From Patescibacteria group bacterium (GTDB lineage: Bacteria; Patescibacteriota; Patescibacteriia; JAGVFQ01), in contig JAGVFQ010000032.1 of assembly GCA_020057505.1 (NCBI GenBank), positions 1-57,441 of the forward strand: a DNA stretch of 57,441 nucleotides. Direction: 5' to 3'. The notes below the pieces were generated by a model, which was not told the DNA's origin, made no database searches, and worked only from the letters and a program-made list of their open reading frames with translations. Made by a program: the position numbers and the translations under genes. This document shows positions 1,429 to 19,800 of this stretch, piece by piece; position 1 is the first letter of the stretch; the number at the start of each line of letters is the position of its first letter.

Positions 1429-2829
1429 ATGATCTGCGTATTTAATACTCTCACTCGCAAAAAGGAAGAATTTGTCCCTCTTAAGAAGGGTCGTGTTGGA
1501 ATGTATGTTTGCGGGCCTACGGTCTATGACCATGATCATATTGGCCATGCTTGGAATTATACGACTTCTGATCTCTTGCGGCGATTGTTTGAATATAATG
1601 GCTATAAAGTGAAACAAGTGATGAATATTACGGACGTCGGGCATCTCACGAGCGATGCTGATATTGGTGAGGACAAGCTCGAGAAATCAGCTCGGGAAAG
1701 AGGGGAGACTGCTTGGCAGATTGCCAAATTTTTTACAAAAATCTATCTTCTTGACCGCGACAAGCTCAACCTCGAAAAACCGCAAGTAATTTGTAAGGCA
1801 ACGGATCACATCAAGGAAATGATCCGCTTAGTCCAGATTTTAATCGATAAAGGCTATGGCTACGAAACGAATGATGGAATATATTTTGATACGGCGAAAT
1901 TCAAAGATTATGGTAAACTTTCGGGTAATACTTTGGAACGATTGAAGGAGGGCGCGCGTGTGGAAATCAATCCGGAAAAGAGAAACCCGTCCGATTTTGC
2001 GCTCTGGAAATTTTCGCCGGCGGGCAAGAAAAGAGATATGGAATGGAAGGCTTTTGGCAAAATGGGTTTTCCGGGCTGGCATATCGAATGTTCGGCCATG
2101 AGCATGAAATATTTGGGCGAAAATTTTGATCTTCATACGGGCGGGGAAGATAATATTTTTCCGCATCATGAGTGCGAGCGTGCCCAGTCCGAGGCCGCTA
2201 CGGCCAAGAAATTCGTCAATTATTGGTTCCACACGAGATTTCTTATGGTCGAAGGCGAGAAGATGTCCAAGTCTCTCAAAAATTTTTTTACGATCAAAGA
2301 TTTGGAAGACAAGGGCTATTCGGCGCTTGATTTGCGCTATCTTTTTCTCACGGCTCATTATCGGTCGCAGCTGAATTTCACTTGGCAGTCGCTCGAGGCG
2401 GCCAAGATCGCGCGAGAAAAACTGAATAATTTTATTTTGAGCGTCAAAGGCAAGGGCAAGGTTAATAAAAATTACAAAGATCAATTTTTAAGCTTTATCA
2501 ATAATGATTTGGATACGGCCCGGGGATTGGCCTTGATTTGGCAGTTGCTAAAAGACAAAGATATTTCCGACGCGGACAAGAAAGCCGCTATCCTTGATTT
2601 TGATCAATTTTTAGGTTTAAGACTCGCTAAATTAAAAAAGAAGAAAAATATTATTCCCAAAAAGATTATTCAATTAGTGAAAGAAAGGGAGAAGGCGAGA
2701 AAGGACAAGGATTGGGCGCGAAGCGATGAATTGCGGCAATTGATTGAAAAAGAGGGTTTCTCAGTCGAGGATACAAAAAACGGGCCGATTATAGCCACTT
2801 TTTTTTGCGGAAAAAAATCAACATGGTAA
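1429..2829 (+). CDS. cysS: Cysteinyl-tRNA synthetase
   Basis: Class I HIGH motif (HIGHAWNY) and KMSKS motif (KMSKSLKN). The Cys/His zinc-site context (WHIECSAM, HHECE) also fits. Confidence 0.95.
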   Translation: MICVFNTLTRKKEEFVPLKKGRVGMYVCGPTVYDHDHIGHAWNYTTSDLLRRLFEYNGYKVKQVMNITDVGHLTSDADIGEDKLEKSARERGETAWQIAKFFTKIYLLDRDKLNLEKPQVICKATDHIKEMIRLVQILIDKGYGYETNDGIYFDTAKFKDYGKLSGNTLERLKEGARVEINPEKRNPSDFALWKFSPAGKKRDMEWKAFGKMGFPGWHIECSAMSMKYLGENFDLHTGGEDNIFPHHECERAQSEAATAKKFVNYWFHTRFLMVEGEKMSKSLKNFFTIKDLEDKGYSALDLRYLFLTAHYRSQLNFTWQSLEAAKIAREKLNNFILSVKGKGKVNKNYKDQFLSFINNDLDTARGLALIWQLLKDKDISDADKKAAILDFDQFLGLRLAKLKKKKNIIPKKIIQLVKEREKARKDKDWARSDELRQLIEKEGFSVEDTKNGPIIATFFCGKKSTW

Positions 2830-3715
2830 TCGAGGTGATAAACATTATACTGATGATAATCCAAAAATCGAATTGGTTGCCTATTAGAGGAGTGTTGACG
2901 GTGTTCATGCCGAAAATGCTCGCGAAAAGAGTAAGCGGAAAAACGATAACCGAAAAAATAGTCAAAATTTTGATGATGTCGTTGGTTTTAAAACCGACAA
3001 GCGCGCTATTCGTATCTTCCATGGCATCGATAGTTTGCCTTTGGTTTTCCAAAATATCCCAAATGTTTTTGGTATGGTCAATCAGATCGCGATAATAATC
3101 TCTCAAATGTTCTTGCGGGAAATAGGGAGAATTAATTTTGATAATATGCTCAATAATATTTTTATGAGCCTGCATGGTTTTGCGGAAATTAACAATATTT
3201 CTTTTAATGATCAGTATCTCTCGGAGCATCTGCTTTTCGTAGCCGGCAAATATTTTATTTTCAATATTTTTTATGTCGATACTGATATGATCAAGCATCG
3301 GGAAGCATTCCATCTCAAGGCGATTCAAAATTTCATAAAGCAATTTGGCCGGTGATTCAGCCATGTATTTGTCTTTTTCCAGAGGATTAATTTTGCAAGT
3401 GTTAAAAAAGTTAATTAACGGCGCCAGTTCCTCATTATGTACCATTGCTAAATGCGTCGGCGTGATGAAGAAATCAATTTCCGCGGCAATGATTTCTCGC
3501 TTTTTGCGGCTATAATAGGGGAAAAGAAAGATCAAAAAAAGATAATCAGGCTGTGCGTCGATTTTGGGCCGCTGGGCATAGCTCGAGGCATAAGAATCTT
3601 TGAGGTCCAGCGGGTGAAATTTGAAATTTTTGGCCAAATAATCGATTTCTTTTTTGCCGGCATGCGTAACGTTTAGCCATGTCACTTTGTCAGTTTTGAT
3701 AGTTTCTATAGACAT
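2789..3715 (-). CDS. corA: CorA-family magnesium/cobalt transporter
   Basis: GMN signature (IFGMNTV) lies ahead of two C-terminal TM helices, and the length is typical (308 aa). Its 3-prime end overlaps the cysS 3-prime end by 41 nt (convergent genes). Confidence 0.9.
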   Translation of the reverse strand: MSIETIKTDKVTWLNVTHAGKKEIDYLAKNFKFHPLDLKDSYASSYAQRPKIDAQPDYLFLIFLFPYYSRKKREIIAAEIDFFITPTHLAMVHNEELAPLINFFNTCKINPLEKDKYMAESPAKLLYEILNRLEMECFPMLDHISIDIKNIENKIFAGYEKQMLREILIIKRNIVNFRKTMQAHKNIIEHIIKINSPYFPQEHLRDYYRDLIDHTKNIWDILENQRQTIDAMEDTNSALVGFKTNDIIKILTIFSVIVFPLTLFASIFGMNTVNTPLIGNQFDFWIIISIMFITSITMLIFFRKKKWL

Positions 3716-3841
3716 AGTAGCGGTTATTTTGAAATTAAGACATTTAAATATCTAACCATATTCTACCATATTTGGAGTTTTGTTGCCACAACAAGCGAAA
3801 GTTGGTATAATTAAATTAAGATTAATTTTATTCAAGAAAAA

Positions 3842-4366
3842 ATGGCTACCAATACCAAGGACCAGGAAAAGAAAGAAGAAGAAGCTGCTTTTCTGCGAGA
3901 ACAAACTAAAAAAGCACCCGAGCCCTTAATTCCGGAAATAAAGCCGGAAGTTTTGATTCAGATTACGGAAAAAGAAAAAGTCCCTGAAAAAGTTCTGGAA
4001 ACCGTGGAAAAAAAAGAATTAGCGGAAAAAGTGGAAGCGCCGCAGATTGCGCCTCAAGTCTCAGCGCCGTCAGCCCAAGTGAGCGCGCCCAAGAGCGAAA
4101 TTTTAGTTAATATTGAAAGAGTGCTCGAAGAAGATTTGAGTGAAATGTATACCAAGATGTCACCGCAAGAACAGCTGGCATTTCGCATGAAAGGCGAGGA
4201 AACGGCGATTAAAATCGAAAAATTATTTCATGAAGCCAGGGCGACGGTCAGGAAGATTTTGAAATTAATCCGGGAATGGCTAAAAATGATTCACGGCGCG
4301 AATAAATATTTTCTAGAACAAGCGGCGAAGATCAAGACGGACAGGCTGATGAAACTGAAGAAATAA
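3842..4366 (+). CDS. Hypothetical Glu/Lys/Pro-rich protein
   Basis: ORF with a low-complexity acidic/basic N-terminal half and a helical C-terminal half. No recognisable family. Confidence 0.45.
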   Translation: MATNTKDQEKKEEEAAFLREQTKKAPEPLIPEIKPEVLIQITEKEKVPEKVLETVEKKELAEKVEAPQIAPQVSAPSAQVSAPKSEILVNIERVLEEDLSEMYTKMSPQEQLAFRMKGEETAIKIEKLFHEARATVRKILKLIREWLKMIHGANKYFLEQAAKIKTDRLMKLKK

Positions 4367-4501: not shown

Positions 4502-7051
4502 ATGTTTGAGGAATTCTTCCAATTTGTAAATACCAATATAGTACAAGGCAATGAAGCAATCATGGCCTTGGTTGGAATAATTGTTCTGTCGGCAGCAATC
4601 TTGATCTGCCCTTTTTTTATTATCCGGAAATTTTTGCACCGAATCGGCCGGATTCCCACGGCTTTTGAATTTGTCGTTTTACTCGTCACTCTGCCCAAAG
4701 AATCGCAGGATGACCGGCAAAAAGAAGCGCCGCGAAGCCAGCAGGCGCTCGCCGAAACCATCGGCATAGCGGAAACATTATTTTCTAGCATCGGCGGACT
4801 CAAGGCCCAGCGCGGACTCAAAGCCTTTCTTTTCGGCCGCACCGACCACTTATCATTTGAAATAGTGGCTCACGAAGGATTAATTTCTTTCTATGTCGCG
4901 GTGCCGCGCTACATGATTCAGTTTATCGAGCAGCAGATTCAAGCGCAGTATCACACGGCCGTGATTGAAGAAATTGACGATTATAATATTTTTACGCCCG
5001 AAGCCAAGATCGTTGGGACATATTTAACGTTCAAAGAGAAAAGCGCTTTCCCTATCAGAACCTATAAAAAGACGGAATCAGATCCTCTGAATGCCCTCAC
5101 CAATACTTTAAGTAAGCTCGGTGAAGAGGATGGAGCGGCGATACAGTTTGTCGTCCGTTCAGCCAAAAAAGAATGGCGTCGCGAGGGGATCAGAATCGCG
5201 AGAGCGATGCAGCAGGGGAAAAAATTATCCGAAGTTAAACATAGCGGATTTTTCAGCGGCTGGATTAATCTTTTCAAATCTTCAAAATTGGCATCAAAGC
5301 CGGGCGAGGCGCCGAAGGAACTATACAAATTGACTCCGCTTGAGGAAGAAATGGTGAAAAACCTGGAAGAAAAAGCCAATAAGCTCGGGCTTGATGTTAA
5401 TATCAGATTACTCTCCGTATCCAAGGACGAAACGCGCGCCAAAATGTATCTCGATAATATGGTCAGTTCCTTCAGCCAGTATAATATTCCGCAGTATGGC
5501 AATATTTTTAGAAAATTCCAGCATGGTATTTTCCGGGGCAAGGACAGAATTATCCATGATTTTATTTTTCGAAATTTTACGGACAAAGCCAAGATTGTTT
5601 TGAATACCGAGGAGATGGCGAGCGTCTATCATTTCCCGCTCGCGACGACGGAAACGCCGAATATCCGCTGGCTACTCGCAAAAAAAGCGCCAGCGCCCGT
5701 GAATGCGCCCAAGGAAGGCGTGCTTTTGGGCTACAATGACTATCGCGGTTTAAGAACGGATATTAAGATTAAAAGAGAAGATCGATTCCGCCATGTCTAT
5801 ATTATCGGTAAATCCGGCGTCGGCAAATCCGTGCTTTTGTCCAATATGATTATCCAAGACATTGTCGCGGGCGACGGTGTGGCCGTAGTGGATCCGCATG
5901 GCGATCTCGTGGAAGATGTCTTGCCTCATATCCCCAAAGACCGGATCGACGATGTTATTTATTTTTGTCCCGCGGATACTGATCGGCCAATGGGTTTGAA
6001 CATGCTTGAGTATAAAACCGATGAACAGAAGGATTTTGCCGTGCAGGAAATGATTGCCATTTTTTACAAATTATTCGGCCAGGAAATGATTGGTCCGATG
6101 TTTGAGCATTATATGAGAAATGCCATGCTTGCCTTAATGGAAGACAAGGAATCCGGCGCGACGATTATTGAAATTCCGAGAATGTTCACGGACAAGGAAT
6201 TCCGAAAAAATAAATTAACCAAAGTAAAAAATCCTGTGGTAAAAAGTTTTTGGGAGCAGGAATATGAACAATCACAGCGTGGTTCCCAGGCCGCGGATAT
6301 GCTTTCTTATGTTATTTCCAAAATCGGCAGATTCTTGACGAATGACATGATGAGAAATATTATCGGGCAGGTGAAGTCCGGCTTTGATTTCCGCGAGGTG
6401 ATGGATAACCGGAAAATTTTATTGATTAATTTGTCCAAGGGCACTACTGGCGAAGTAAATAGCAATCTGCTCGGCATGATTCTCGTGACCAAACTTCAAG
6501 TCGCGGCGATGACGAGAGCAAAACAGGAAAAGAGCGAGCGCAAAGATTTTTTCCTCTATATTGATGAGTTCCAAAATTTTATTACGGATAGTATCGCTAC
6601 GATTCTCTCCGAAGCGAGAAAATATCGTTTTGGTTTGATTATCGCGCACCAATATATCGGGCAACTGGTACAAGGTCAGGACACGAAGACAAGGGACGCG
6701 GTTTTTGGCAATGTCGGCACAATGATCTCTTTTCGTATCGGCGTGGAAGACGCGGAGACTGTGGCTAAAGAATTTGCTCCGGTGTTTAACGAATACGACG
6801 TGATCAATGTTCCAATGTACACCGCTTATTGCAAACTTTTGGTTGATAACACGGCGACCAATGCTTTTAATATGGCTACTTATCCACCGAGGAAGGGCGA
6901 CAGAAAGATGGCCGAGGCGATTAAAGAGCTTTCTCGCTTGAAATACGGGCGGAACAAAGTGATTGTGGAAGCGGAAATTATGGAGCGGAGCAATCTTGGT
7001 AATCTTTCCGGCGGCGCGGGCGGCGGCAGCCCGGATCACGGGATTCTATAA
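4502..7051 (+). CDS. Membrane-anchored FtsK/HerA-superfamily P-loop ATPase, TraD/VirD4 (type IV coupling protein)-like
   Basis: N-terminal TM helices. Walker A is GKSGVGKS and Walker B-like is FFLYIDEFQNF. The ATG at 4502 is preferred because the listed TTG at 4487 lies inside the AT-rich repeat. Confidence 0.7.
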   Translation: MFEEFFQFVNTNIVQGNEAIMALVGIIVLSAAILICPFFIIRKFLHRIGRIPTAFEFVVLLVTLPKESQDDRQKEAPRSQQALAETIGIAETLFSSIGGLKAQRGLKAFLFGRTDHLSFEIVAHEGLISFYVAVPRYMIQFIEQQIQAQYHTAVIEEIDDYNIFTPEAKIVGTYLTFKEKSAFPIRTYKKTESDPLNALTNTLSKLGEEDGAAIQFVVRSAKKEWRREGIRIARAMQQGKKLSEVKHSGFFSGWINLFKSSKLASKPGEAPKELYKLTPLEEEMVKNLEEKANKLGLDVNIRLLSVSKDETRAKMYLDNMVSSFSQYNIPQYGNIFRKFQHGIFRGKDRIIHDFIFRNFTDKAKIVLNTEEMASVYHFPLATTETPNIRWLLAKKAPAPVNAPKEGVLLGYNDYRGLRTDIKIKREDRFRHVYIIGKSGVGKSVLLSNMIIQDIVAGDGVAVVDPHGDLVEDVLPHIPKDRIDDVIYFCPADTDRPMGLNMLEYKTDEQKDFAVQEMIAIFYKLFGQEMIGPMFEHYMRNAMLALMEDKESGATIIEIPRMFTDKEFRKNKLTKVKNPVVKSFWEQEYEQSQRGSQAADMLSYVISKIGRFLTNDMMRNIIGQVKSGFDFREVMDNRKILLINLSKGTTGEVNSNLLGMILVTKLQVAAMTRAKQEKSERKDFFLYIDEFQNFITDSIATILSEARKYRFGLIIAHQYIGQLVQGQDTKTRDAVFGNVGTMISFRIGVEDAETVAKEFAPVFNEYDVINVPMYTAYCKLLVDNTATNAFNMATYPPRKGDRKMAEAIKELSRLKYGRNKVIVEAEIMERSNLGNLSGGAGGGSPDHGIL

Positions 7052-7886: not shown

Positions 7887-7976
7887 CCGGAAATTTGATA
7901 ATAATCCAATATAGCGATATAATGTAATTAGTTAAAATAAATAAAAAAATAAAAATCAAATAGACAAAAACAAACT

Positions 7977-8573
7977 ATGTTTGGCAAAGATAAAAACAAA
8001 AATGAAGACGAAGAAAAGACTTTTCTCACCGGCGAGAAATTAATGGCTTTGAGGCAGATGCTTTTGGGCATCAAAATTAATGTTGATAAGGCGATCGATA
8101 TGCTGAGCAAGGGCGACGATGATGAAGGTGTTGATTCCGAAGCGCTCTTGGATTCGCTCACGAGGCTGCAGTCAATGTCCGCCGAAGTGAATGAAGGCGG
8201 GAGAGTGGTAGAAGGCGTTTTCGACGGCGAGAATATGATCGGATCAGATGGCAAGCAATATGGCATACCGCCGAATTACGCGTCAAAATCAAAACTAGTG
8301 GAAGGCGATATTTTGAAATTAACAATCAACGGCAACGGTTCGTTTGTCTACAAACAGATCGGACCGGTCGAAAGAAACCGGCTTATCGGCGTTTTGGGCA
8401 AAAATGATTCCGGCGAGTTTATCGCGTATATTGATAACAAAAAATGGAAATTAATCACGGCAAGCGTTACTTATTTCAAGGGCGGAGAGGGCGATGAAAT
8501 AGTTATCTTGGTGCCAAAAGAGCGTCCGAGCAAATGGGCGGCGGTGGATAATGTTATTAAGGCGAAAGATTAA
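7977..8573 (+). CDS. Hypothetical protein
   Basis: Clean ORF followed by a GC-rich hairpin. No family recognised. Confidence 0.45.
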   Translation: MFGKDKNKNEDEEKTFLTGEKLMALRQMLLGIKINVDKAIDMLSKGDDDEGVDSEALLDSLTRLQSMSAEVNEGGRVVEGVFDGENMIGSDGKQYGIPPNYASKSKLVEGDILKLTINGNGSFVYKQIGPVERNRLIGVLGKNDSGEFIAYIDNKKWKLITASVTYFKGGEGDEIVILVPKERPSKWAAVDNVIKAKD

Positions 8574-10473: not shown

Positions 10474-10544
10474 TGCGGGATCGTCTAATGGTAGGACAGC
10501 AGACTCTGAATCTGCTTATCGTGGTTCGACCCCACGTCCCGCAG
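10474..10544 (+). tRNA. tRNA-Gln (anticodon CUG), no encoded CCA
   Basis: Hand-folded cloverleaf. Acceptor stem is TGCGGGA/TCCCGCA with the U1-A72 pair typical of bacterial tRNA-Gln. Anticodon stem is GCAGA/TCTGC with loop CTCTGAA. T arm is CGTGG-TTCGACC-CCACG. Variable loop is 4 nt. Confidence 0.9.
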
Positions 10545-12996: not shown

Positions 12997-13098
12997 ATGG
13001 ACTATTCTCAAGAGTATCTAAATACTATTATCAAAAAATATAATACCGGCCAAGCGAAAGAACACGCGCATCGGCCGGCTTGGGAATCGTTAAAGTAA
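12997..13098 (+). CDS. 33-codon ORF between the STAS-like gene and the R-M gene (possible gene remnant or upstream ORF)
   Basis: MDYSQEYLNTIIKKYNTGQAKEHAHRPAWESLK*. It starts 5 nt after the STAS stop and ends 8 nt before the R-M ATG, in a different frame from the R-M gene. Confidence 0.25.
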   Translation: MDYSQEYLNTIIKKYNTGQAKEHAHRPAWESLK

Positions 13099-13106
13099 AT
13101 AATTTT

Positions 13107-15806
13107 ATGCAAGAAGAAGCTAAAGAAAAAATTAAAAACCTTATCGCGAAATACGAAGCGGAAAAAGCCGCGGGGAAGATTGCCAGATATAGCGAAGAAG
13201 AAACCAAAAGAGGTTTTATTGAGCCACTGTTTCAGGCGTTGGGTTGGGATTTTTCAAGTAAAAAAGAAATAACCCTAGAAGAGCAGATTTCCGGCGATCG
13301 CGTGGATTATGGTTTTTATTTGAATGGCCGGATAAAATTTTATTTGGAAGCCAAAAAAATATCAGTTGATTTGTATCGCGAAGATTATGCCAAGCAAGCC
13401 ATCCGTTATTCTTGGAACAAAGGCGTTACTTGGGCTGTGCTCTCCGACTTTGAAGGTTTGATTGTCTTCAACGCTCTATCGCCGGAAAAATCTTTGGCCG
13501 GGAAAAAGTATTTATCTTTTACTTATGAAGAATATCTAACTCGCTTTGACGAGCTGTGGCGTCTGTCGAAAGAAGCCTTTAGCGCTGATCTTTTGGATCA
13601 GGAAGCTGAAAAAGTGGGCAAGAAATTGCAAAAGGTGTCTGTCACTGAAACCTTATCAAATGATTTGAATGAATGCCGAGAAATTTTGACTAAAGCTTTT
13701 TTACAATGGAATGAAAAAGTTGATCCGCATCTTATAGACGAAGGCGTGCAAAAGCTGCTCAATCGACTGATTTTTATCCGTTGCGCCGAAGACCGGAAAA
13801 TTGAACCGCCGACGCTCCTACCCTTGATTCATGAATGGCAATCAAGCGGCAAGGCCGGATCAGTCAGTCCTTATCAGGCCATGATAAAAAAATTTAGAGA
13901 ATTAGACGCCATCTATAATTCCAACTTGTTCAGCGAACATCCGTTTGAAAAATGGGAAGAATTCAGCGGGGCGACGGAAAAGGTGATTGAGATTTTACAC
14001 GGAAAAAAGAATTATTTTGAATATGATTTTTCAGCTATACCCGCCGATGTACTCGGTAATGTCTATGAGAATTATCTTGGCCATCAATTAAAAAAATCCA
14101 AAAAGGCGGAAGATCTGTCGGGCAAGAATCTCAAAAAACGCAAAGAGCAGGGGATATACTATACGCCCAAGTTTATTGTTGATTATATCGTGCAAAATGC
14201 TCTTGGTCCGGTATTGGATAAATGTGAAAGTATAAATGATCTACAGAAAATTAAAATTCTAGATCCGGCTTGCGGCTCGGGCTCATTTTTGGTGGCGGCG
14301 ATGAATTTCTTGATAAAGAAGTATGAAGAATTCGGAGCCAAGCCCGACGGTCTCTTAAAAATTCAGATTTTGCAAAATAATATTTATGGCGTGGATTTGG
14401 ATGAGCAAGCCGTGGAGCTCGCGCGCTTGAATTTGCTTTTGAATACTTTTGACAGCCAAACCAAACTGCCTAATCTGGGCGGGAATATTAAAAATGGCAA
14501 TTCGTTAATTTCCGGCAGTGATGAAGAGCTGGAAAAATATTTTGGGAAAAATTGGCGCGAGAAAAAACCGTTTAATTGGGAAGAGGAATTTCCCGAAGTT
14601 TTCCGACAAGGTGGGTTTGATGTAGTAATCGGCAATCCGCCGTATATACAATCAAGAAATATAAATGATGAGGAAAGGCATTTTTATTGGGATAAATATC
14701 AAACTGATACTAATCATTCCGATATTTATTCTTTTTTCATTGAAAAATCAATTGATCTTTTAAAAAATCAAGGAGCTTTAAGTTTTATTACTCCAAATAC
14801 ATGGTTGCAAACTCCAAGTTTTAAGTCCACAAGAAAAAAGATTTTTGATGAAAGTAAGATACTAAAAATTTTAACTTTTGACACAAATGCAAAAATATTT
14901 GGCGACGCTCAAGTTTCGAATATCGTTTTTGTTATACAAAAAGAAACAAACAAAAAGGTTAGTATGAGTAATTCCATAGAGATAGAAAAAAGTGAAATTG
15001 ATTTTAAAATAAATGCATTAAATAAAATTGAACAAAAAGATATTGATTCAGAGAAAGGATTTAATATTTTTATCAGTCAGGAACCCAAAGATATTATAGA
15101 TAAAATTCTTTCAAATTCTATTGTTTTAGATTCTGTCGGAGAGATTATAGGCGGATTAAGAACGGGTGATGATAAAAAGTTTTTAAAAAATAAATTTGAA
15201 AATCAAAATGATAAAAAGTTGCTTAGAGGAAGAAATGTGAGTCGTTACCATCTAAAATGGAATGGAGAATATGTTTGGTATAAGCCAGAATTGATGAAAG
15301 TAAAACAAGCAGCGGCACCAAAAGAATCAAAAATTTTTGAGACTAAAGAAAAATTATTAGTAAGAATGATAACAGGGGGAGAACTTATCGCCACTTTTGA
15401 TAACGAAGGATTTTATTTCTTACAAGATAATCTTATTTTGCCAAAAGAAAAATATAGCATTAAATATTTATTGGCGATTTTAAATTCAAAATTGTCCGGG
15501 TTTGTAGTTAAAAATTCTGTATCTAATATTGCTATAACACAATCGTTATTAAAAAAATTTCCAATTTATAAAATTGATTTTTCAAAACCAAAAGAAAAAG
15601 AAAAGCATGACGATCTAGTAAAATTGGCCGATAAAATGCTTAAATTAAATAAGGAGCTTCGCAGGCTACCAGAAAATTCCGATAAGTGGAATTCAATAAA
15701 ATCAGAAATAGAAAAGACGAATAAATTGATTGATCAAAAAGTTTATGAATTGTATAATTTAAACGAAAACGAAATTAAAATAGTTGAAAGCTATGACAAA
15801 ATCTAA
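13107..15806 (+). CDS. Type IIG restriction-modification fusion enzyme (PD-(D/E)xK nuclease + gamma-class N6-adenine methyltransferase + specificity region), Eco57I-like architecture
   Basis: N-terminal HsdR_N-like nuclease motif (RVDYGFYLNGRIKFYLEAKK). SAM motif I is ILDPACGSGSFL and catalytic motif IV is GNPPYI. The long K/N/I-rich C-terminal region is a presumed TRD. The ATG at 13107 is preferred over the TTG at 13080. Confidence 0.85.
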   Translation: MQEEAKEKIKNLIAKYEAEKAAGKIARYSEEETKRGFIEPLFQALGWDFSSKKEITLEEQISGDRVDYGFYLNGRIKFYLEAKKISVDLYREDYAKQAIRYSWNKGVTWAVLSDFEGLIVFNALSPEKSLAGKKYLSFTYEEYLTRFDELWRLSKEAFSADLLDQEAEKVGKKLQKVSVTETLSNDLNECREILTKAFLQWNEKVDPHLIDEGVQKLLNRLIFIRCAEDRKIEPPTLLPLIHEWQSSGKAGSVSPYQAMIKKFRELDAIYNSNLFSEHPFEKWEEFSGATEKVIEILHGKKNYFEYDFSAIPADVLGNVYENYLGHQLKKSKKAEDLSGKNLKKRKEQGIYYTPKFIVDYIVQNALGPVLDKCESINDLQKIKILDPACGSGSFLVAAMNFLIKKYEEFGAKPDGLLKIQILQNNIYGVDLDEQAVELARLNLLLNTFDSQTKLPNLGGNIKNGNSLISGSDEELEKYFGKNWREKKPFNWEEEFPEVFRQGGFDVVIGNPPYIQSRNINDEERHFYWDKYQTDTNHSDIYSFFIEKSIDLLKNQGALSFITPNTWLQTPSFKSTRKKIFDESKILKILTFDTNAKIFGDAQVSNIVFVIQKETNKKVSMSNSIEIEKSEIDFKINALNKIEQKDIDSEKGFNIFISQEPKDIIDKILSNSIVLDSVGEIIGGLRTGDDKKFLKNKFENQNDKKLLRGRNVSRYHLKWNGEYVWYKPELMKVKQAAAPKESKIFETKEKLLVRMITGGELIATFDNEGFYFLQDNLILPKEKYSIKYLLAILNSKLSGFVVKNSVSNIAITQSLLKKFPIYKIDFSKPKEKEKHDDLVKLADKMLKLNKELRRLPENSDKWNSIKSEIEKTNKLIDQKVYELYNLNENEIKIVESYDKI

Positions 15807-16560
15807 AATTACTAAAAATATACAACTTTGCAATCAAGGGGAAGGTTTTTTCGAATCCATCTTATCTCAAAATGTAATATTACATCAGGTAAAAGGCGGA
15901 AATGATGTTGGGATTGATTATTTTTGCGAATTGATTAATGCAAAAAATGAATCCTCAAATATTTTATTTGTAATTCAATTAAAAACAACGAGGAAAGATA
16001 ATGTTGTCCTGCAAAAGGTTGAAAATAATTCTCGTCTAAATAAACTAGATCAATATGAGATAAAAAGAAAAAACAAAAAGGGAGGGGCAAGTGGAAAGTA
16101 TGACAACAAGAGCTTAATTAAAGATGAAACTTTAGAATATTGGAAGGGCTTTGAGACGCCCGTGTATTTATTTGTAGCTGTTATCGGAAACAAAAATCAA
16201 TTGTTCTATAAAAGATACACTCCAATTCTGCATAGCACACAAAAGAGAAATAATGAAAAATTTTACTTGGTTAATAATAAAAATTTATTTCTAGCATTTA
16301 TTGAAAATAATCAAGGAGGATTTTGCAGGGATTTATTTATTGATTATGTAAGGTGTAATTATAAAAAAGGATCGTTACTATATAAATCGCCGAAAGATTT
16401 TGGACTAAAACAATTTTCGGAAGACGATTTTTATAAAGATTTGTTTAGGAATAAAATATATAAAGACGCATTTATAAAAACGAGAGATAAATTGAATTAT
16501 TTTTGTAGCGGTAAAAGAAAAATGGCGGCAGATGGATTGGGGAAGGGGGAGGAGGGATAA
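15793..16560 (+). CDS. DUF4365-like (restriction-endonuclease-fold) protein
   Basis: NQGEGFFESIL...GGNDVGIDYFCEL...LFVIQLKT fits the DUF4365 pattern (G.Ge...D.GIDy..E...vQ.K). The ATG at 15793 overlaps the R-M stop codon (15804-15806) by 14 nt. Confidence 0.6.
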   Translation: MTKSKITKNIQLCNQGEGFFESILSQNVILHQVKGGNDVGIDYFCELINAKNESSNILFVIQLKTTRKDNVVLQKVENNSRLNKLDQYEIKRKNKKGGASGKYDNKSLIKDETLEYWKGFETPVYLFVAVIGNKNQLFYKRYTPILHSTQKRNNEKFYLVNNKNLFLAFIENNQGGFCRDLFIDYVRCNYKKGSLLYKSPKDFGLKQFSEDDFYKDLFRNKIYKDAFIKTRDKLNYFCSGKRKMAADGLGKGEEG

Positions 16561-16633
16561 ATATTACTTAAAACAAGTAAAATAAAAACAAAAAAGATAT
16601 GAATTATTTAGTCAATAAAAATAAATTTATACT

Positions 16634-16773
16634 GCAAACAAAAAACTCAACCTTAGTTAGATTGAGTCCTTTGTATAGAAGCAGCGTCTCATATAGCGGT
16701 TGATCTGCAGCTTAGATCCCAGATACTCTGGGGGAAAACCACAGCGCCACAAAAGCTATTATTGCATGCTTCT
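16634..16773 (-). ncRNA. Candidate small RNA A (about 140 nt), defined by promoter and terminator
   Basis: The minus-strand promoter is TTGACT (16802-16807), a 16-nt spacer, and TATACT (16780-16785). The minus-strand intrinsic terminator is ACTCAA/TTGAGT (16645-16667) followed by TTTTTTGTTTG. There is a closing stem AGAAGCA/UGCUUCU and an internal CCCAGA-GUA-UCUGGG hairpin. No ORF exceeds 11 codons. Confidence 0.4.
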
Positions 16774-16888
16774 ATTTGCAGTATACCGCAAGTATATTAA
16801 AAGTCAAGAGTTATCCACATCTGAAAAATATGCCTTGGCTAACGAAAAAAATAGGCGCTGTGCTAGCTTCGCTGGAGTAAAACATTTT

Positions 16889-17005
16889 ATGAAAAATCTC
16901 TCCCACCTAGCAATACTTCTATCTTTTATCTTACTCTTGACCGGTTGCGAAGCAGCCAATCTTCCAGTTAATAATAATTTTGATGTGTTGAAAGAGGGGA
17001 GATAA
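16889..17005 (+). pseudogene. Truncated duplicate of the thermonuclease lipoprotein 5-prime end (signal peptide only, 38 codons)
   Basis: MKNLSHLAILLSFILLLTGCEAANLPVNNN compares with MKILSRLAILLSFSLILTGCEAVNLPANNN at 17815. DNA similarity runs about 16879-16981 versus 17806-17905, plus the upstream TTATCCACA block. Confidence 0.55.
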
Positions 17006-17033
17006 AGATTATTTAAAACAAGGAAAATAAAAT

Positions 17034-17702
17034 ATGGATTTGCAAGAATTTAAAAGTTACAATATTAAACAAAAATTAGGAATTGACGATGAAAAATTCG
17101 GAAAGATTTTTGTTTTTATTGATTTTGCCAATGTGGATAAATGGTTTGCCGAAGACACTAGAGATTGGGATAATAATGTTTTAGACAATAATAATAAACT
17201 ATCCATTGATTTAGAGAGGCTGGTTAATTTTATAAAATGTTTTTCTGGTGATTTTAGATTTTATTACGGACATGATCCGCAAAATAAAAATTCATTAAAA
17301 TTTCTTGGGAAAACAAAATATGTTTTTGGCGAAAAAAATGTTTTTACCAAACCAATCCAACAAATCAGGCATTATTTAAAAGAAAGAGAAAAATTAATAA
17401 ATACAAGGTGTACACAACATGACAACGAAGGCGATTTTATTTATTTACCCAAATGTAACTTTGATGTAGAAATTTGCGTTGACGCTATCAGATTGATAAA
17501 TAAATATGATACTTTTTGTCTTTTTTCAAGTGATGCGGATTTTGTTAGTTTAATAACATTTCTAAAAAATAACCGCAAAAAAGTAATTTTGATTAAAGGA
17601 GGGCATGTGCAGTATTCTTTAAAAGCAAACAGTGATAAGGTTATAAACGCTCAGGATATAAAGGCATATATAGCCCATATAAAGCAAAAATCTAGCCCTT
17701 AA
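17034..17702 (+). CDS. NYN-domain (LabA/DUF88-like, PIN-like fold) putative ribonuclease
   Basis: FVFIDFANV...DVEICVDAIRL...FCLFSSDADFVSLITFLK matches the conserved acidic residues of NYN/LabA domains. Confidence 0.7.
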   Translation: MDLQEFKSYNIKQKLGIDDEKFGKIFVFIDFANVDKWFAEDTRDWDNNVLDNNNKLSIDLERLVNFIKCFSGDFRFYYGHDPQNKNSLKFLGKTKYVFGEKNVFTKPIQQIRHYLKEREKLINTRCTQHDNEGDFIYLPKCNFDVEICVDAIRLINKYDTFCLFSSDADFVSLITFLKNNRKKVILIKGGHVQYSLKANSDKVINAQDIKAYIAHIKQKSSP

Positions 17703-17759
17703 GGCTAGATCTTGCGGATAGTATTCCCGCATCCGCGGGCAGGGCAATCTTGCGATTAC
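17684..17759 (-). ncRNA. Candidate small RNA B (about 75 nt), convergent with and overlapping the NYN gene 3-prime end
   Basis: The minus-strand promoter is TTGACA (17789-17794), a 17-nt spacer, and TATATT (17766-17771). The terminator ATCTAGCC-TTAAG-GGCTAGAT plus TTTTTG spans the NYN stop codon (17700-17702). There is an internal CCCGC-GGAU-GCGGG hairpin, and CGCAAGAU occurs twice. Confidence 0.35.
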
Positions 17760-17814
17760 ATATTGAATATATCAAAACTTATCCACAATGTCAAATATAC
17801 AATCAAACATTCTA

Positions 17815-18689
17815 TGAAAATCCTCTCCCGCCTAGCCATACTTCTCTCTTTTAGCTTAATTTTGACTGGTTGTGAAGCAGTAAATCTTCCGGCCAATAAT
17901 AATTTAGCAGCGCCGGTGGTGGAAGAGGCGAATAATGTTAATCAAGTTGTTTTAAACCAAAACGTAAATACCAATATTGCCCAGCCGGCGGTTGTTCAGA
18001 ATACCAAACCAGTGGCTGTCCCGGCGAAAAAAATATCTCCTGAGAAAGAATATTATCTTGTCATCAAAGTCGTTGATGGCGATACTCTGGATCTAAATAT
18101 CAATGGCGCTACGGAAAGAATACGGCTCATCGGCATTGATACGCCGGAAGTGGTGGATCCGAGAAAACCGGTGCAGTGTTTTGGCCTCGAGGCCTCCAAT
18201 CAGGCCAAGGCAGTCCTCACTGGCCAGTCCGTGGCTTTGGAAAAAGATCCTTCGCAAGGGGAGCGGGACAAATACGGCCGATTGCTCGGCTATATTTTTT
18301 TGAGAGATGGTACAAATTTTAACAAGCAGATGATTCGGGAGGGCTATGCCTATGAATATACTTATAATTTGCCATACAAATATCAAACGGAATTCAAAGC
18401 GGCGGAAAATTACGCCCGAATCAATAAACTTGGCCTTTGGGCGGATGATAGTTGCATCGACGTCGCCACGCCCGTTTCGACAAATACTAATACAAATTCT
18501 AACACCAATACTGCCGCCGCGACCGGGTGTGTGATTAAGGGTAATATCACCACGGAAAAAATTTATCATCTGCCCGGATGCGGCAGTTATTATAAAACAA
18601 CTATAGATGAATCAAAAGGGGAGCGCTGGTTTTGCACTGAAACAGAAGCCGTGGCTGCCGGTTGGCGCAAAGCGAAAAATTGTCCGTAA
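17815..18689 (+). CDS. Secreted thermonuclease (SNase-fold) lipoprotein with a C-terminal Cys-containing KGNI...IYHLPG...WFC...EA.AAGWR domain
   Basis: Lipobox is LTGC. SNase motifs are VVDGDTLDL, RLIGIDTPE and YGRLLGYIF. The ATG at 17815 is preferred over the TTG at 17712. Confidence 0.85.
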
Positions 18690-18765
18690 ACAAAAAATAT
18701 TTTAAAATACATTTTAATTTGTAAGAATTTTATATAAAATATTTTAATCAAAAATTGTAATCAGA

Positions 18766-18826
18766 AAATCGCCTTTTGAGGCGTTTTTTGTTTGACTTGA
18801 TATGAACTAGGGCGTAAAATTAAAAT
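18766..18826 (+). repeat. Direct repeat copy 3 (degenerate; terminator + promoter module without the tRNA piece)
   Basis: cgccttttgaggcgttttttgtttgacttgatatgaactagggcgtaaaatta aligns with copies 1 and 2. TTGACT (18792-18797), a 17-nt spacer and TAAAAT (18815-18820) are conserved. Confidence 0.7.
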
Positions 18827-18850
18827 AGAATATATGAAAAAAATAAGAAA

Positions 18851-19531
18851 ATGGCCAAGCGGGAAACTAACACTATTATTATTTCCGATTTGCACTTGGG
18901 ATCAGCGGTGAGCGAGCCCCGGAAGGCGCTCGCCATGCTCAAGGGCTATTCTTTCCAGAAGCTCGTGCTCCTCGGGGATATTTTTGATAGCCTTGATTTC
19001 CGCCATCTCAATACCGAATGCTGGGAATTCCTGAATTATGTCGGAAAGATTGCCAAGGAAAAGAAAGTCAGATGGGTAATCGGGAATCACGACATGGGCC
19101 TGGCTGATATTTTCGGTTCGCTCGTCGGCGCCAAAGTCTACGAAACTTATATTTGGCACTATCGCCGGAAGACCTACCTCGCGATTCATGGCCACCAGTT
19201 TGATCGGTTCTTGATTAATAATGCCTTTCTCTCGTATCTCGCTACCCGCATCTACAATTTTGTCCAAAGAATAGATTTTCATGATATGAAATTCAGCCAT
19301 TACTTGAAAAGGCAGAGCAAGGGTTGGCTCCGGCTCTCGGACAAGGTGGCCCGCTCCGCGCTCCGGTACGGAGCCAAGAATGGCGCTGATTTTGTTTTTT
19401 GCGGTCACACCCACAAGGCCATGGAAAAAAGCCAAGGAAATATCCGCTATTACAATTCCGGCTGCTGGACTGATACGCCTTGCCAGTATATTACCATCGA
19501 TAAAGAAGGCATTGAGATTCATGAATTTTAA
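18851..19531 (+). CDS. Calcineurin-like metallophosphoesterase (LpxH-like family)
   Basis: Motifs are ISDLHLG, GDIFD, GNHD, and GH...GHTH. Confidence 0.8.
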   Translation: MAKRETNTIIISDLHLGSAVSEPRKALAMLKGYSFQKLVLLGDIFDSLDFRHLNTECWEFLNYVGKIAKEKKVRWVIGNHDMGLADIFGSLVGAKVYETYIWHYRRKTYLAIHGHQFDRFLINNAFLSYLATRIYNFVQRIDFHDMKFSHYLKRQSKGWLRLSDKVARSALRYGAKNGADFVFCGHTHKAMEKSQGNIRYYNSGCWTDTPCQYITIDKEGIEIHEF

Positions 19532-19554: not shown

Positions 19555-19800
19555 ATGTATTATCTCTATATTGTAAAATGCGCGGATAAAACATTGTATA
19601 CGGGAATTACCGTTGATTTGCCCCGGCGGATAAAAGAACATAATTTCACCCGCCGCGGCGCCAAATATACCCGAGCTCGCCGGCCGGTGAAATTGATTTA
19701 TTCCAAAAAATTCCGCAATCGATCTCTCGCCTCCAAAGCGGAATATAAAATTAAAAAATTATCAAAACAAGAAAAAGAAAAAATTATTAAAAAATCTTGA
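19555..19800 (+). CDS. GIY-YIG nuclease family protein (UPF0213-like)
   Basis: YYLYIVKCADKTLYTGITVDLPRRIKEHN. Confidence 0.85.
   Translation: MYYLYIVKCADKTLYTGITVDLPRRIKEHNFTRRGAKYTRARRPVKLIYSKKFRNRSLASKAEYKIKKLSKQEKEKIIKKS

Follow-up and report, generated by a model that had tools for sequence, protein, structure and literature searches.

A NYN-type nuclease gene and a convergent structured small RNA as a candidate toxin-antitoxin-like module of Patescibacteria

We analysed a 57,441-nt stretch of DNA from a Patescibacteria group bacterium (contig JAGVFQ010000032.1), referred to below as the window, in which a gene for a NYN/LabA-like ribonuclease (hereafter NYN) converges on a small RNA (sRNA) gene of the opposite strand, unit B. 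All coordinates are window positions unless a comparison contig is named (an L with a number, such as L027 or L049). As listed in Table 1, a second minus-strand sRNA gene, unit A, lies to the left, and the order along the locus is X1, unit A, Y1, a 13-nt junction, X2, NYN with unit B, and Y2, where X and Y denote two pairs of direct repeats. The region is a defence island, because genes for a type IIG restriction-modification enzyme and for a DUF4365 protein sit upstream. The long open reading frames (ORFs) of the window are nearly all on the plus strand, and the two minus-strand sRNA genes stand out among them. The NYN-SNase portion of the locus, starting at 16822, recurs in sequencing run SRR6489360.

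Table 1. Features of the locus. Positions refer to the window, except in the last four rows, where they refer to contig L049.
Feature	Position	Strand	Evidence and remarks
NYN/LabA-like ribonuclease gene, 222 aa	17034..17702	+	Pfam PF01936, E 7.8e-15
Unit B, new NYN-associated sRNA	17681..17759	-	Model R1, 99.3 bits; minimum free energy (MFE) fold with three hairpins
Unit B terminator	17713..17687	-	NYN stop codon (17700-17702) within the loop
Unit B promoter, TTGACA-17-TATATT with TG	17766..17794	-	Scan 11/12, best in region; exact DnaA-box-like 9-mer (17779-17787) in spacer
Unit A, DUF3800-V RNA (Rfam RF02964)	16677..16773	-	cmscan 69.6 bits vs. gathering threshold 37.4, E 1e-13, model positions 1-96 of 96
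Unit A intrinsic terminator	16633..16674	-	16-bp hairpin, then U run; MFE fold of 16628-16773, z -4.88
Unit A promoter, TTGACT-16-TATACT (16807..16780), with exact DnaA-box-like 9-mer (16811-16819)	16780..16819	-	Scan 10/12
Direct repeat X1 (host-locus sequence)	16549..16587	.	87% over 39 nt to X2, E 9e-9
Direct repeat X2, immediately 5′ of the NYN start codon	16994..17032	.	Pairs with X1; not upstream of NYN elsewhere
Direct repeat Y1; holds the thermonuclease ribosome-binding site, ATG and lipoprotein signal peptide in diverged form	16880..16980	.	84% over 101 nt to Y2, E 9e-28
Direct repeat Y2, heads the intact thermonuclease gene	17805..17905	.	Pairs with Y1
38-codon stump ORF	16889..17005	+	Chimera of Y1, 13-nt junction and first X2 codons; no Pfam match
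Type IIG restriction-modification enzyme gene	13080..15806	+	Pfam Eco57I 9.7e-46, N6_Mtase, TaqI_C, MmeI_Mtase; PADLOC REase_MTase_IIG 4e-123
DUF4365 (restriction-endonuclease-like) gene	15784..16560	+	Pfam DUF4365 2.6e-8; PADLOC Argonaute-associated REase N-terminal domain 9.2e-8
Gene for a secreted lipoprotein thermonuclease (SNase); host gene that bounds the slot on the right	17814..18689	+	Pfam SNase 6.4e-27; PADLOC SNc+LTD 1.3e-49
L049 DUF3800 gene	1954..2622	+	Faces the DUF3800-V RNA
L049 DUF3800-V RNA	2640..2736	-	
L049 NYN gene	3211..3900	+	Faces its RNA
L049 NYN-associated RNA	3865..3942	-	

The NYN/LabA-like identity proposed for the gene in the initial annotation, which had been made from the sequence without database searches, held on every approach. 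The Pfam profile PF01936 scored 56.1 bits against a curated cut-off of 24.2, and the AlphaFold2 model (mean predicted local distance difference test score, pLDDT, 92.3) had the NYN/LabA fold; a Foldseek search with this model retrieved 2qip at 8.8e-7 and the NYN domain of MARF1 at 9e-5 (about 1e-4). Residues D30, D144, E146, D150, D167 and D169 were invariant in 30 sequences. Since these acidic residues are invariant and the model has the NYN fold, the protein is predicted to be a nuclease with an intact active site, for which RNase activity would be expected. NYN domains are PIN-like ribonucleases. A bacterial NYN protein was described as a Mn2+-dependent nuclease of single-stranded RNA (doi 10.1101/2024.04.08.588522), and a CRISPR-linked NYN protein trims CRISPR RNA (crRNA).

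The window protein has the fold and the acidic active-site residues in common with the LabA/NYN family (PF01936; 2qip, the MARF1 NYN domain and the CRISPR-associated NYN protein of Bacteroides fragilis). It differs from these in that its subfamily carries extra beta-hairpin inserts, which bring it to 222 aa against a core of ~150 aa, and ends in a KQK(S/P)(S/G) tail dictated by the RNA terminator; the KQK is invariant because the complement of the U tail of the unit B terminator encodes it. The protein has 604 homologues, nearly all of them in Patescibacteria assemblies. No dedicated sRNA for other NYN proteins was found in Rfam 15 or in the literature searched, and the literature on NYN-linked sRNAs yielded nothing relevant.

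In the initial homologue loci, 135 nt spanning the NYN 3′ end and the DNA beyond it are ~85% identical throughout, though the neighbourhoods differ. A covariance model of unit B, R1, was then run over a set of NYN loci that included 80 more from a scan of one genome per species. It found the RNA in 83 of 84 NYN loci and, with L113, in 84 of 85, always convergent and at the 3′ end of the gene; in the sole locus without the RNA the contig ends inside the gene. These loci span 43-83% protein identity and several phyla. The model was also specific, for in 483 kb of DUF3800-V loci (see below) it gave one match, that in L113, which abuts a convergent NYN homologue, and in ~1.1 Mb of other DNA searched no unit B RNA was detected away from NYN.

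Unit B begins with an optional hairpin P1, continues with an unpaired CCUG and the hairpin P2 (CCCGY-GGAU-RCGGG), and passes through a linker with AUCCGCAA at its end into a terminator hairpin and U tail; the MFE fold of the window copy forms the same three hairpins as R1 (z -4.09). Across the alignment 95% of the pair cells were paired; shuffles reached 70.5%, and sliding the partners by a few columns left 17-40%. These percentages are somewhat inflated, because the alignment was fitted to the structure model. All 19 pairs showed compensatory changes, and double-change cells numbered 391, compared with 95 in shuffles. Some loci lack P1, and where it is present its changes are all compensatory. 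The GGAU of the P2 loop could pair with an AUCC in the linker in >90% of sequences; a pseudoknot of these two segments is unproven, since the only variation is from G-C to G-U. The strand was called from 82 G-U cells against 20 A-C cells, and this ratio, together with the conserved minus-strand promoter and the U tail, led us to reject the element as part of a plus-strand 3′ untranslated region.

In a promoter scan of 16300-18900 the two best sigma-70-like promoters both lay on the minus strand (16807..16780 and 17794..17766), exactly at the two units for which near-consensus promoters had been claimed. The unit B promoter scores at least 10/12 in 41 of 82 homologous loci, compared with 2% of shuffles, and its -35 and -10 elements are conserved. 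Comparison with Rfam 15 separated the two units: unit A matched RF02964, and no family matched unit B at gathering thresholds, either in the window or in 45 related loci. A permissive Rfam search of 16400-18000 offered for it only a terminator-driven match to rnk_pseudo (E 0.72), which was discarded. We concluded that unit B is a minus-strand RNA gene and represents a new RNA family tied to NYN.

In 81 of 82 loci the RNA reaches into the NYN ORF; the median overlap is 22 nt, the same as in the window. Unit B is therefore antisense to the last NYN codons and the 3′ end of the gene, as had been proposed; its terminator does hold the NYN stop codon, but in the loop and not, as originally described, in the stem. 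Between the NYN stop codon and the sRNA promoter no plus-strand terminator was found, so the NYN mRNA should be complementary to the whole sRNA. The unpaired CCUG, the GGAU loop and AUCCGCAA are conserved to at least 80-95% and lie outside the ORF overlap, which suggests a function beyond antisense pairing and an extra contact, most simply with the NYN protein.

Unit A had been taken as the second of two RNA units bracketing one cassette. This view had to be abandoned, as unit A is part of another module, the known DUF3800/DUF3800-V. Position 1 of its Rfam model falls 7 nt downstream of the -10 hexamer, and folding supported the intrinsic terminator predicted earlier; terminators follow the RNA in other DUF3800-V loci too, and L027 has a promoter of the unit A type with an identical TGTGGATAACTCTTGAC layout. 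A metagenome pattern scan gave 68 loci, of which ~54 held genuine DUF3800-V RNAs and 47 were non-redundant. A gene for a DUF3800 protein adjoins the RNA in 42 of the ~54 genuine loci (PF12686, E about 1e-15), and in 33 of the 47 non-redundant loci this ~225-aa gene is convergent and has its 3′ end inside the RNA terminator. No DUF3800 homologue or gene remnant was found to the left of unit A or anywhere in the window (tblastn E>1), and the similarity of unit A to other DUF3800-V loci ends leftward at ~16618-16636, that is, at the terminator. Judged from sequence, unit A is a DUF3800-V copy that has apparently lost its partner gene. The same RNA stands without a partner gene in L107 and L113.

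Two comparison contigs carry both modules. In L049 (1954-3942), a 4.1-kb Saccharibacteria contig, they are intact and in tandem (Table 1), and this is a plausible picture of the window locus before loss of the DUF3800 ORF. L113 holds NYN with its RNA (2819-3532) and, 4.4 kb off, a DUF3800-V RNA (7969-8024) that has no DUF3800 gene and lies beside an hsdM-like gene, a combination that matches the window.

The locus can be pictured as two cassettes of like design side by side in the defence island, each with a ~225-codon nuclease gene facing a strongly transcribed, structured sRNA whose terminator overlaps the end of the gene. The right cassette (NYN with the new sRNA) would be intact, and the left one a remnant reduced to the DUF3800-V sRNA. 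Our preferred reading is that NYN and unit B form a defence module akin to a toxin-antitoxin pair, with the sRNA as the restraint on the RNase, and we give this antidote model as a whole a probability of roughly 0.55. The sRNA would be made constantly from its near-consensus promoter and keep the RNase in check, either through base pairing to the 3′ end of an NYN transcript that reads through, through contact of its unpaired motifs with the protein, or through both. The nuclease would be released on loss of the sRNA supply, caused by transcription shut-off in phage attack or by a changed occupancy of the DnaA-box-like site at the promoter. An RNA-controlled RNase had already been suggested in the initial annotation, and a convergent RNA overlapping the last codons makes that suggestion reasonable; the simple duplication of a 5′ end that went with it did not stand. 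The toxicity of NYN, the inhibitory role of the RNA, the part played by DnaA and the recombination history described below are all things that we infer from the layout. RNA without an intact gene was met in unit A, L107, L113 and L029, whereas NYN without its RNA was not seen in 85 loci (one contig ending inside the gene), an imbalance more in keeping with an antidote than with a cofactor.

Several points weigh against the antidote model, besides the inflated pairing percentages mentioned above. The known type I and type III toxin-antitoxin classes both fit badly, and it is from the layout that the function of the module is deduced. The convergent arrangement could be merely inherited, since a gene and an RNA that overlap cannot separate. 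NYN often follows its upstream gene at 2-15 nt and may be an ordinary operon member and not a toxin, and the DnaA-box-like 9-mer may be a general promoter-proximal element and not a specific sensor input. Moreover, DUF3800-I RNAs occur in either orientation to their gene, which counts against antisense as the general mechanism (PMC5737381).

Of the other explanations, the one that survives best is control purely in cis, as in type I systems and as the initial annotation had put forward, by RNase III cleavage of the duplex or by a block at the 3′ end and with no binding of protein. Gene and RNA converge and overlap in almost every locus, full complementarity of the mRNA to the sRNA is expected, the unrelated DUF3800/DUF3800-V pair has a like layout, and so do the 3′-overlapping type I loci txpA/RatA and bsrG/SR4. 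An antisense RNA that is always complementary to its target, however, needs none of the conserved CCUG, GGAU and AUCCGCAA motifs, and these are kept across proteins only 45% identical; other DUF3800 RNAs are found in either orientation (PMC5737381), and the putative toxin is a 222-aa enzyme and no small peptide. We regard this account as unlikely, if quite conceivable. Somewhat more doubtful is the idea that the sRNA assists the nuclease and does not inhibit it, whether as cofactor or scaffold, by setting its specificity, or as a substrate from which processing yields a signal. The strict association of gene and RNA would agree with such a role, as would the conserved structure with its unpaired motifs, suggestive of recognition by protein; DUF3800 proteins accompany RNA-guided CRISPR effectors (PMC10910872; PMC13594972), and the CRISPR-linked NYN protein mentioned above acts on crRNA. 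Yet the RNA has no variable, guide-like segment; P1 changes by compensation only and is sometimes missing. In addition, RNAs persist without the gene while genes were not seen without the RNA.

A role of unit B as a mere insulator, in which a convergent promoter and terminator protect the 3′ end of a cassette inserted into operons and the structure is kept for RNA stability, is very unlikely. The frequent position of the cassette inside restriction-modification operons would suit it, and the terminator does halt antisense transcription after ~20 nt of the ORF. Such a device could do without a pair of conserved hairpins and without single-stranded motifs that stay invariant at these evolutionary distances, nor need it be exclusive to one nuclease family, and an unrelated nuclease family has a different RNA at the same place.

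The antidote model was then set beside known systems. Most of the type I toxins known are small membrane peptides. In the 3′-overlapping type I loci txpA/RatA and bsrG/SR4 of Bacillus subtilis, an sRNA from a strong convergent promoter covers the 3′ end of the putative toxin mRNA, as in NYN/unit B, but the toxin is a small hydrophobic peptide where NYN is a soluble ribonuclease of 222 aa, and unit B has motifs beyond the needs of an antisense RNA. In type III systems (ToxIN, CptIN, TenpIN) a structured RNA restrains a toxin that is an endoribonuclease, and transcription shut-off frees this toxin and leads to abortive infection; the likeness is one of logic, with the NYN side of it deduced. Type III RNA antitoxins are tandem repeat arrays encoded upstream on the same strand and processed by the toxin. 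Unit B, in contrast, is single-copy, downstream and on the opposite strand, and NYN and ToxN are unrelated in fold. PrrC/EcoprrI and RloC provide examples of a latent RNase among restriction-modification genes, a setting in which NYN is found as well (14 of 43 upstream neighbours). PrrC, however, is silenced by contact with the restriction enzyme and not by a dedicated RNA, and is an anticodon nuclease of another fold.

The closest resemblance is to the DUF3800 RNA motifs, which are conserved structured RNAs tied to one protein family and published without a proposed function (Weinberg et al. 2017, PMC5737381). Like NYN/unit B, the DUF3800/RNA pairs combine a structured sRNA that has its own strong promoter and intrinsic terminator with one ~225-aa family of nuclease fold. 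DUF3800-V has the same convergent layout, with the gene 3′ end in the RNA terminator (33/47), and a promoter style with a DnaA-box-like 9-mer in common with NYN/unit B; both occur near restriction-modification genes, and in L049, as in the window, the two modules are neighbours. The partners differ, one being a PIN-like NYN protein and the other an RNase-H-like DUF3800 protein, and the unit B RNA has no sequence or structure in common with any DUF3800 motif. NYN/unit B is therefore an analogue of the DUF3800 design and not a member of the DUF3800 set, and it is best filed in a class, so far little understood, in which a nuclease gene has its own terminator-ended sRNA.

That a second, unrelated nuclease family comes with an unrelated RNA in a DUF3800-like layout suggests that the design, and not one RNA fold, is the functional unit. 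The traits common to both modules are the convergent 3′ overlap, a strong promoter often with a DnaA-box-like site, the proximity to restriction-modification genes, and RNAs that survive the gene, while no gene was seen to lack its RNA. Unit B also adds a well-supported new RNA family to the Patescibacteria, whose non-coding RNAs are little known, and NYN/unit B offers a candidate RNA-controlled RNase effector accompanying restriction-modification systems. More speculatively, NYN/unit B and DUF3800/DUF3800-V might constitute one undescribed defence class, in which cognate sRNAs hold unrelated nucleases inactive by 3′ antisense overlap together with direct binding of the protein, and a DnaA box ties their release to DnaA or the replication state. 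We put this forward tentatively and consider it improbable as it stands. If true, phage takeover would be read out through DnaA or the replication state, and the DUF3800 RNA motifs, unexplained since 2017, would gain a function.

The 9-mer TTATCCACA is the consensus DnaA box. It occurs three times in exact form in the window, always within 16811-17787. One copy lies 3 nt upstream of the unit A -35 element and one inside the spacer of the unit B promoter; the third (17132, inside NYN) was set aside as a by-product of the codons for NVDKW, being present in only 3 of 84 genes. The 9-mer had been described as part of the repeated block upstream of the thermonuclease start, but one box stands 70 nt and the other 27 nt ahead of its ATG, and the two stretches from box to ATG do not align. 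The two TTATCCACA blocks belong instead to the two sRNA promoters. Within ~65 nt upstream of the RNA, 28 of 83 NYN-RNA loci have an exact box and 49 of 83 have one with at most one mismatch, in either orientation, and all the 646 kb searched contained 48 exact boxes, including these 28. In promoter windows of DUF3800-V RNAs an exact box was present in 11 of 46, against 0.075 expected from shuffles.

Several exact boxes elsewhere in these genomes adjoin -35 elements. In L038 (3240-3335) and L047 (2910-3005), exact TGTGGATAA boxes stand beside leftward TTGACA promoters that are followed by ~60-90 nt without an Rfam match, and these segments may be further sRNA genes of like promoter style. Boxes were also noted before rightward mRNA promoters (L005 at 2339, L022 at 763, L063 at 5159 and L088 at 6837).

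The repeats were found by comparing the window with itself. A duplicated 5′ end of the thermonuclease gene had been recognized earlier on both sides of NYN, and in this respect the initial annotation was right: the flanking segments align as the Y pair, and the 38-codon stump is real. The repeat does not, however, include TTATCCACA in register, and a further pair, X, was uncovered, of which X1 comprises the final codons of the DUF4365 gene and the DNA just 3′ of them. Among 120 homologues the stump peptide is closest to the N-terminus of the resident SNase; the stump is probably non-functional. Neither X nor Y repeats were detected at any other locus, which indicates that they are host sequences and not cassette ends. 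An insertion that simply duplicated the 5′ end of its target does not account for this arrangement, as both flanks are repeated, the copies are 84-87% identical, and there is no transposase or integrase. From the sequence pattern we infer that the repeats may be a recombination scar, left when two versions of the slot, each with a different cassette, were joined in tandem; a candidate route would be a single crossover by which a circularised DNA fragment of a related strain integrated. Among the nearest SNase homologues no empty or single-cassette DUF4365-SNase slot was found. That the NYN cassette is a mobile element inserted in the thermonuclease 5′ end, with the repeats as target-site duplications or attachment sites, is hardly credible: direct repeats do flank NYN and unit B, and the module occurs in many genomic contexts, but the repeats measure 101 and 39 nt, have diverged, form two pairs ordered X1-A-Y1-X2-B-Y2 with Y1 to the left of X2, and are both missing from other NYN loci. 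The segment has no recombinase gene, and elsewhere the cassette is bounded by the start codon on one side and the sRNA promoter on the other, without repeats.

The broader notion of NYN as an inserted cassette fared better. NYN and unit B form a discrete, mobile unit, staying together in 84 of 85 loci among unrelated neighbours, and the nearest homologues of the thermonuclease (at most 64% identical) lie in other neighbourhoods and have no NYN neighbour. Genes upstream of NYN were restriction-modification methyltransferases (hsdM or type IIG) in 14 of 43 cases, often 2-15 nt away, and the cassette is frequently placed inside restriction-modification operons, between the methyltransferase gene and downstream subunit genes. 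The module was not found on phage contigs (IMG/VR).

In L029 (1636-6551), a Xanthobacteraceae contig, NYN is interrupted after residue 211, and its 3′ end with the sRNA follows ~1.5 kb downstream (6118-6551). A second copy of this 3′-end/RNA segment, 97% identical, lies at 1669-2102, and the break was likely caused by an inserted repeated element. The contig indicates that the module is not confined to Patescibacteria, and its broken gene and RNA copies that the RNA outlives the gene. Homologues of NYN were met on Rhizomicrobium and Bacteroidetes contigs as well (L051 and L053).

tRNA genes were noted 125-380 nt upstream of the NYN start in L036 (3554-3625), L040 (3759-3831) and L042 (3807-3877), which fits a cassette residing in integration or recombination hot spots. 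The window itself has a single tRNA gene, tRNA-Gln (CTG) at 10474-10544, which is also its only Rfam match besides unit A.

In the window the type IIG gene lies upstream of NYN with the DUF4365 gene and the presumed unit A remnant in between; in L054 a homologue of the enzyme, 47% identical, is directly upstream of NYN. The last 45-50 residues of the window's type IIG enzyme were matched at 60-67% identity in two DUF3800-V loci, L122 (2160-2294) and L152 (609-758), which implies that type IIG relatives neighbour the DUF3800-V module too. The type IIG gene and the DUF4365 ORF, when the latter is called from its first start codon, share 23 nt (15784-15806), and this suggests either translational coupling or a true DUF4365 start further on. 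Finally, a small stand-alone GIY-YIG protein (81-90 aa) is encoded 1-2 kb from the NYN cassette in three contexts, namely the window (19555-19800), L008 (6467-6727) and L011 (2893-3165).

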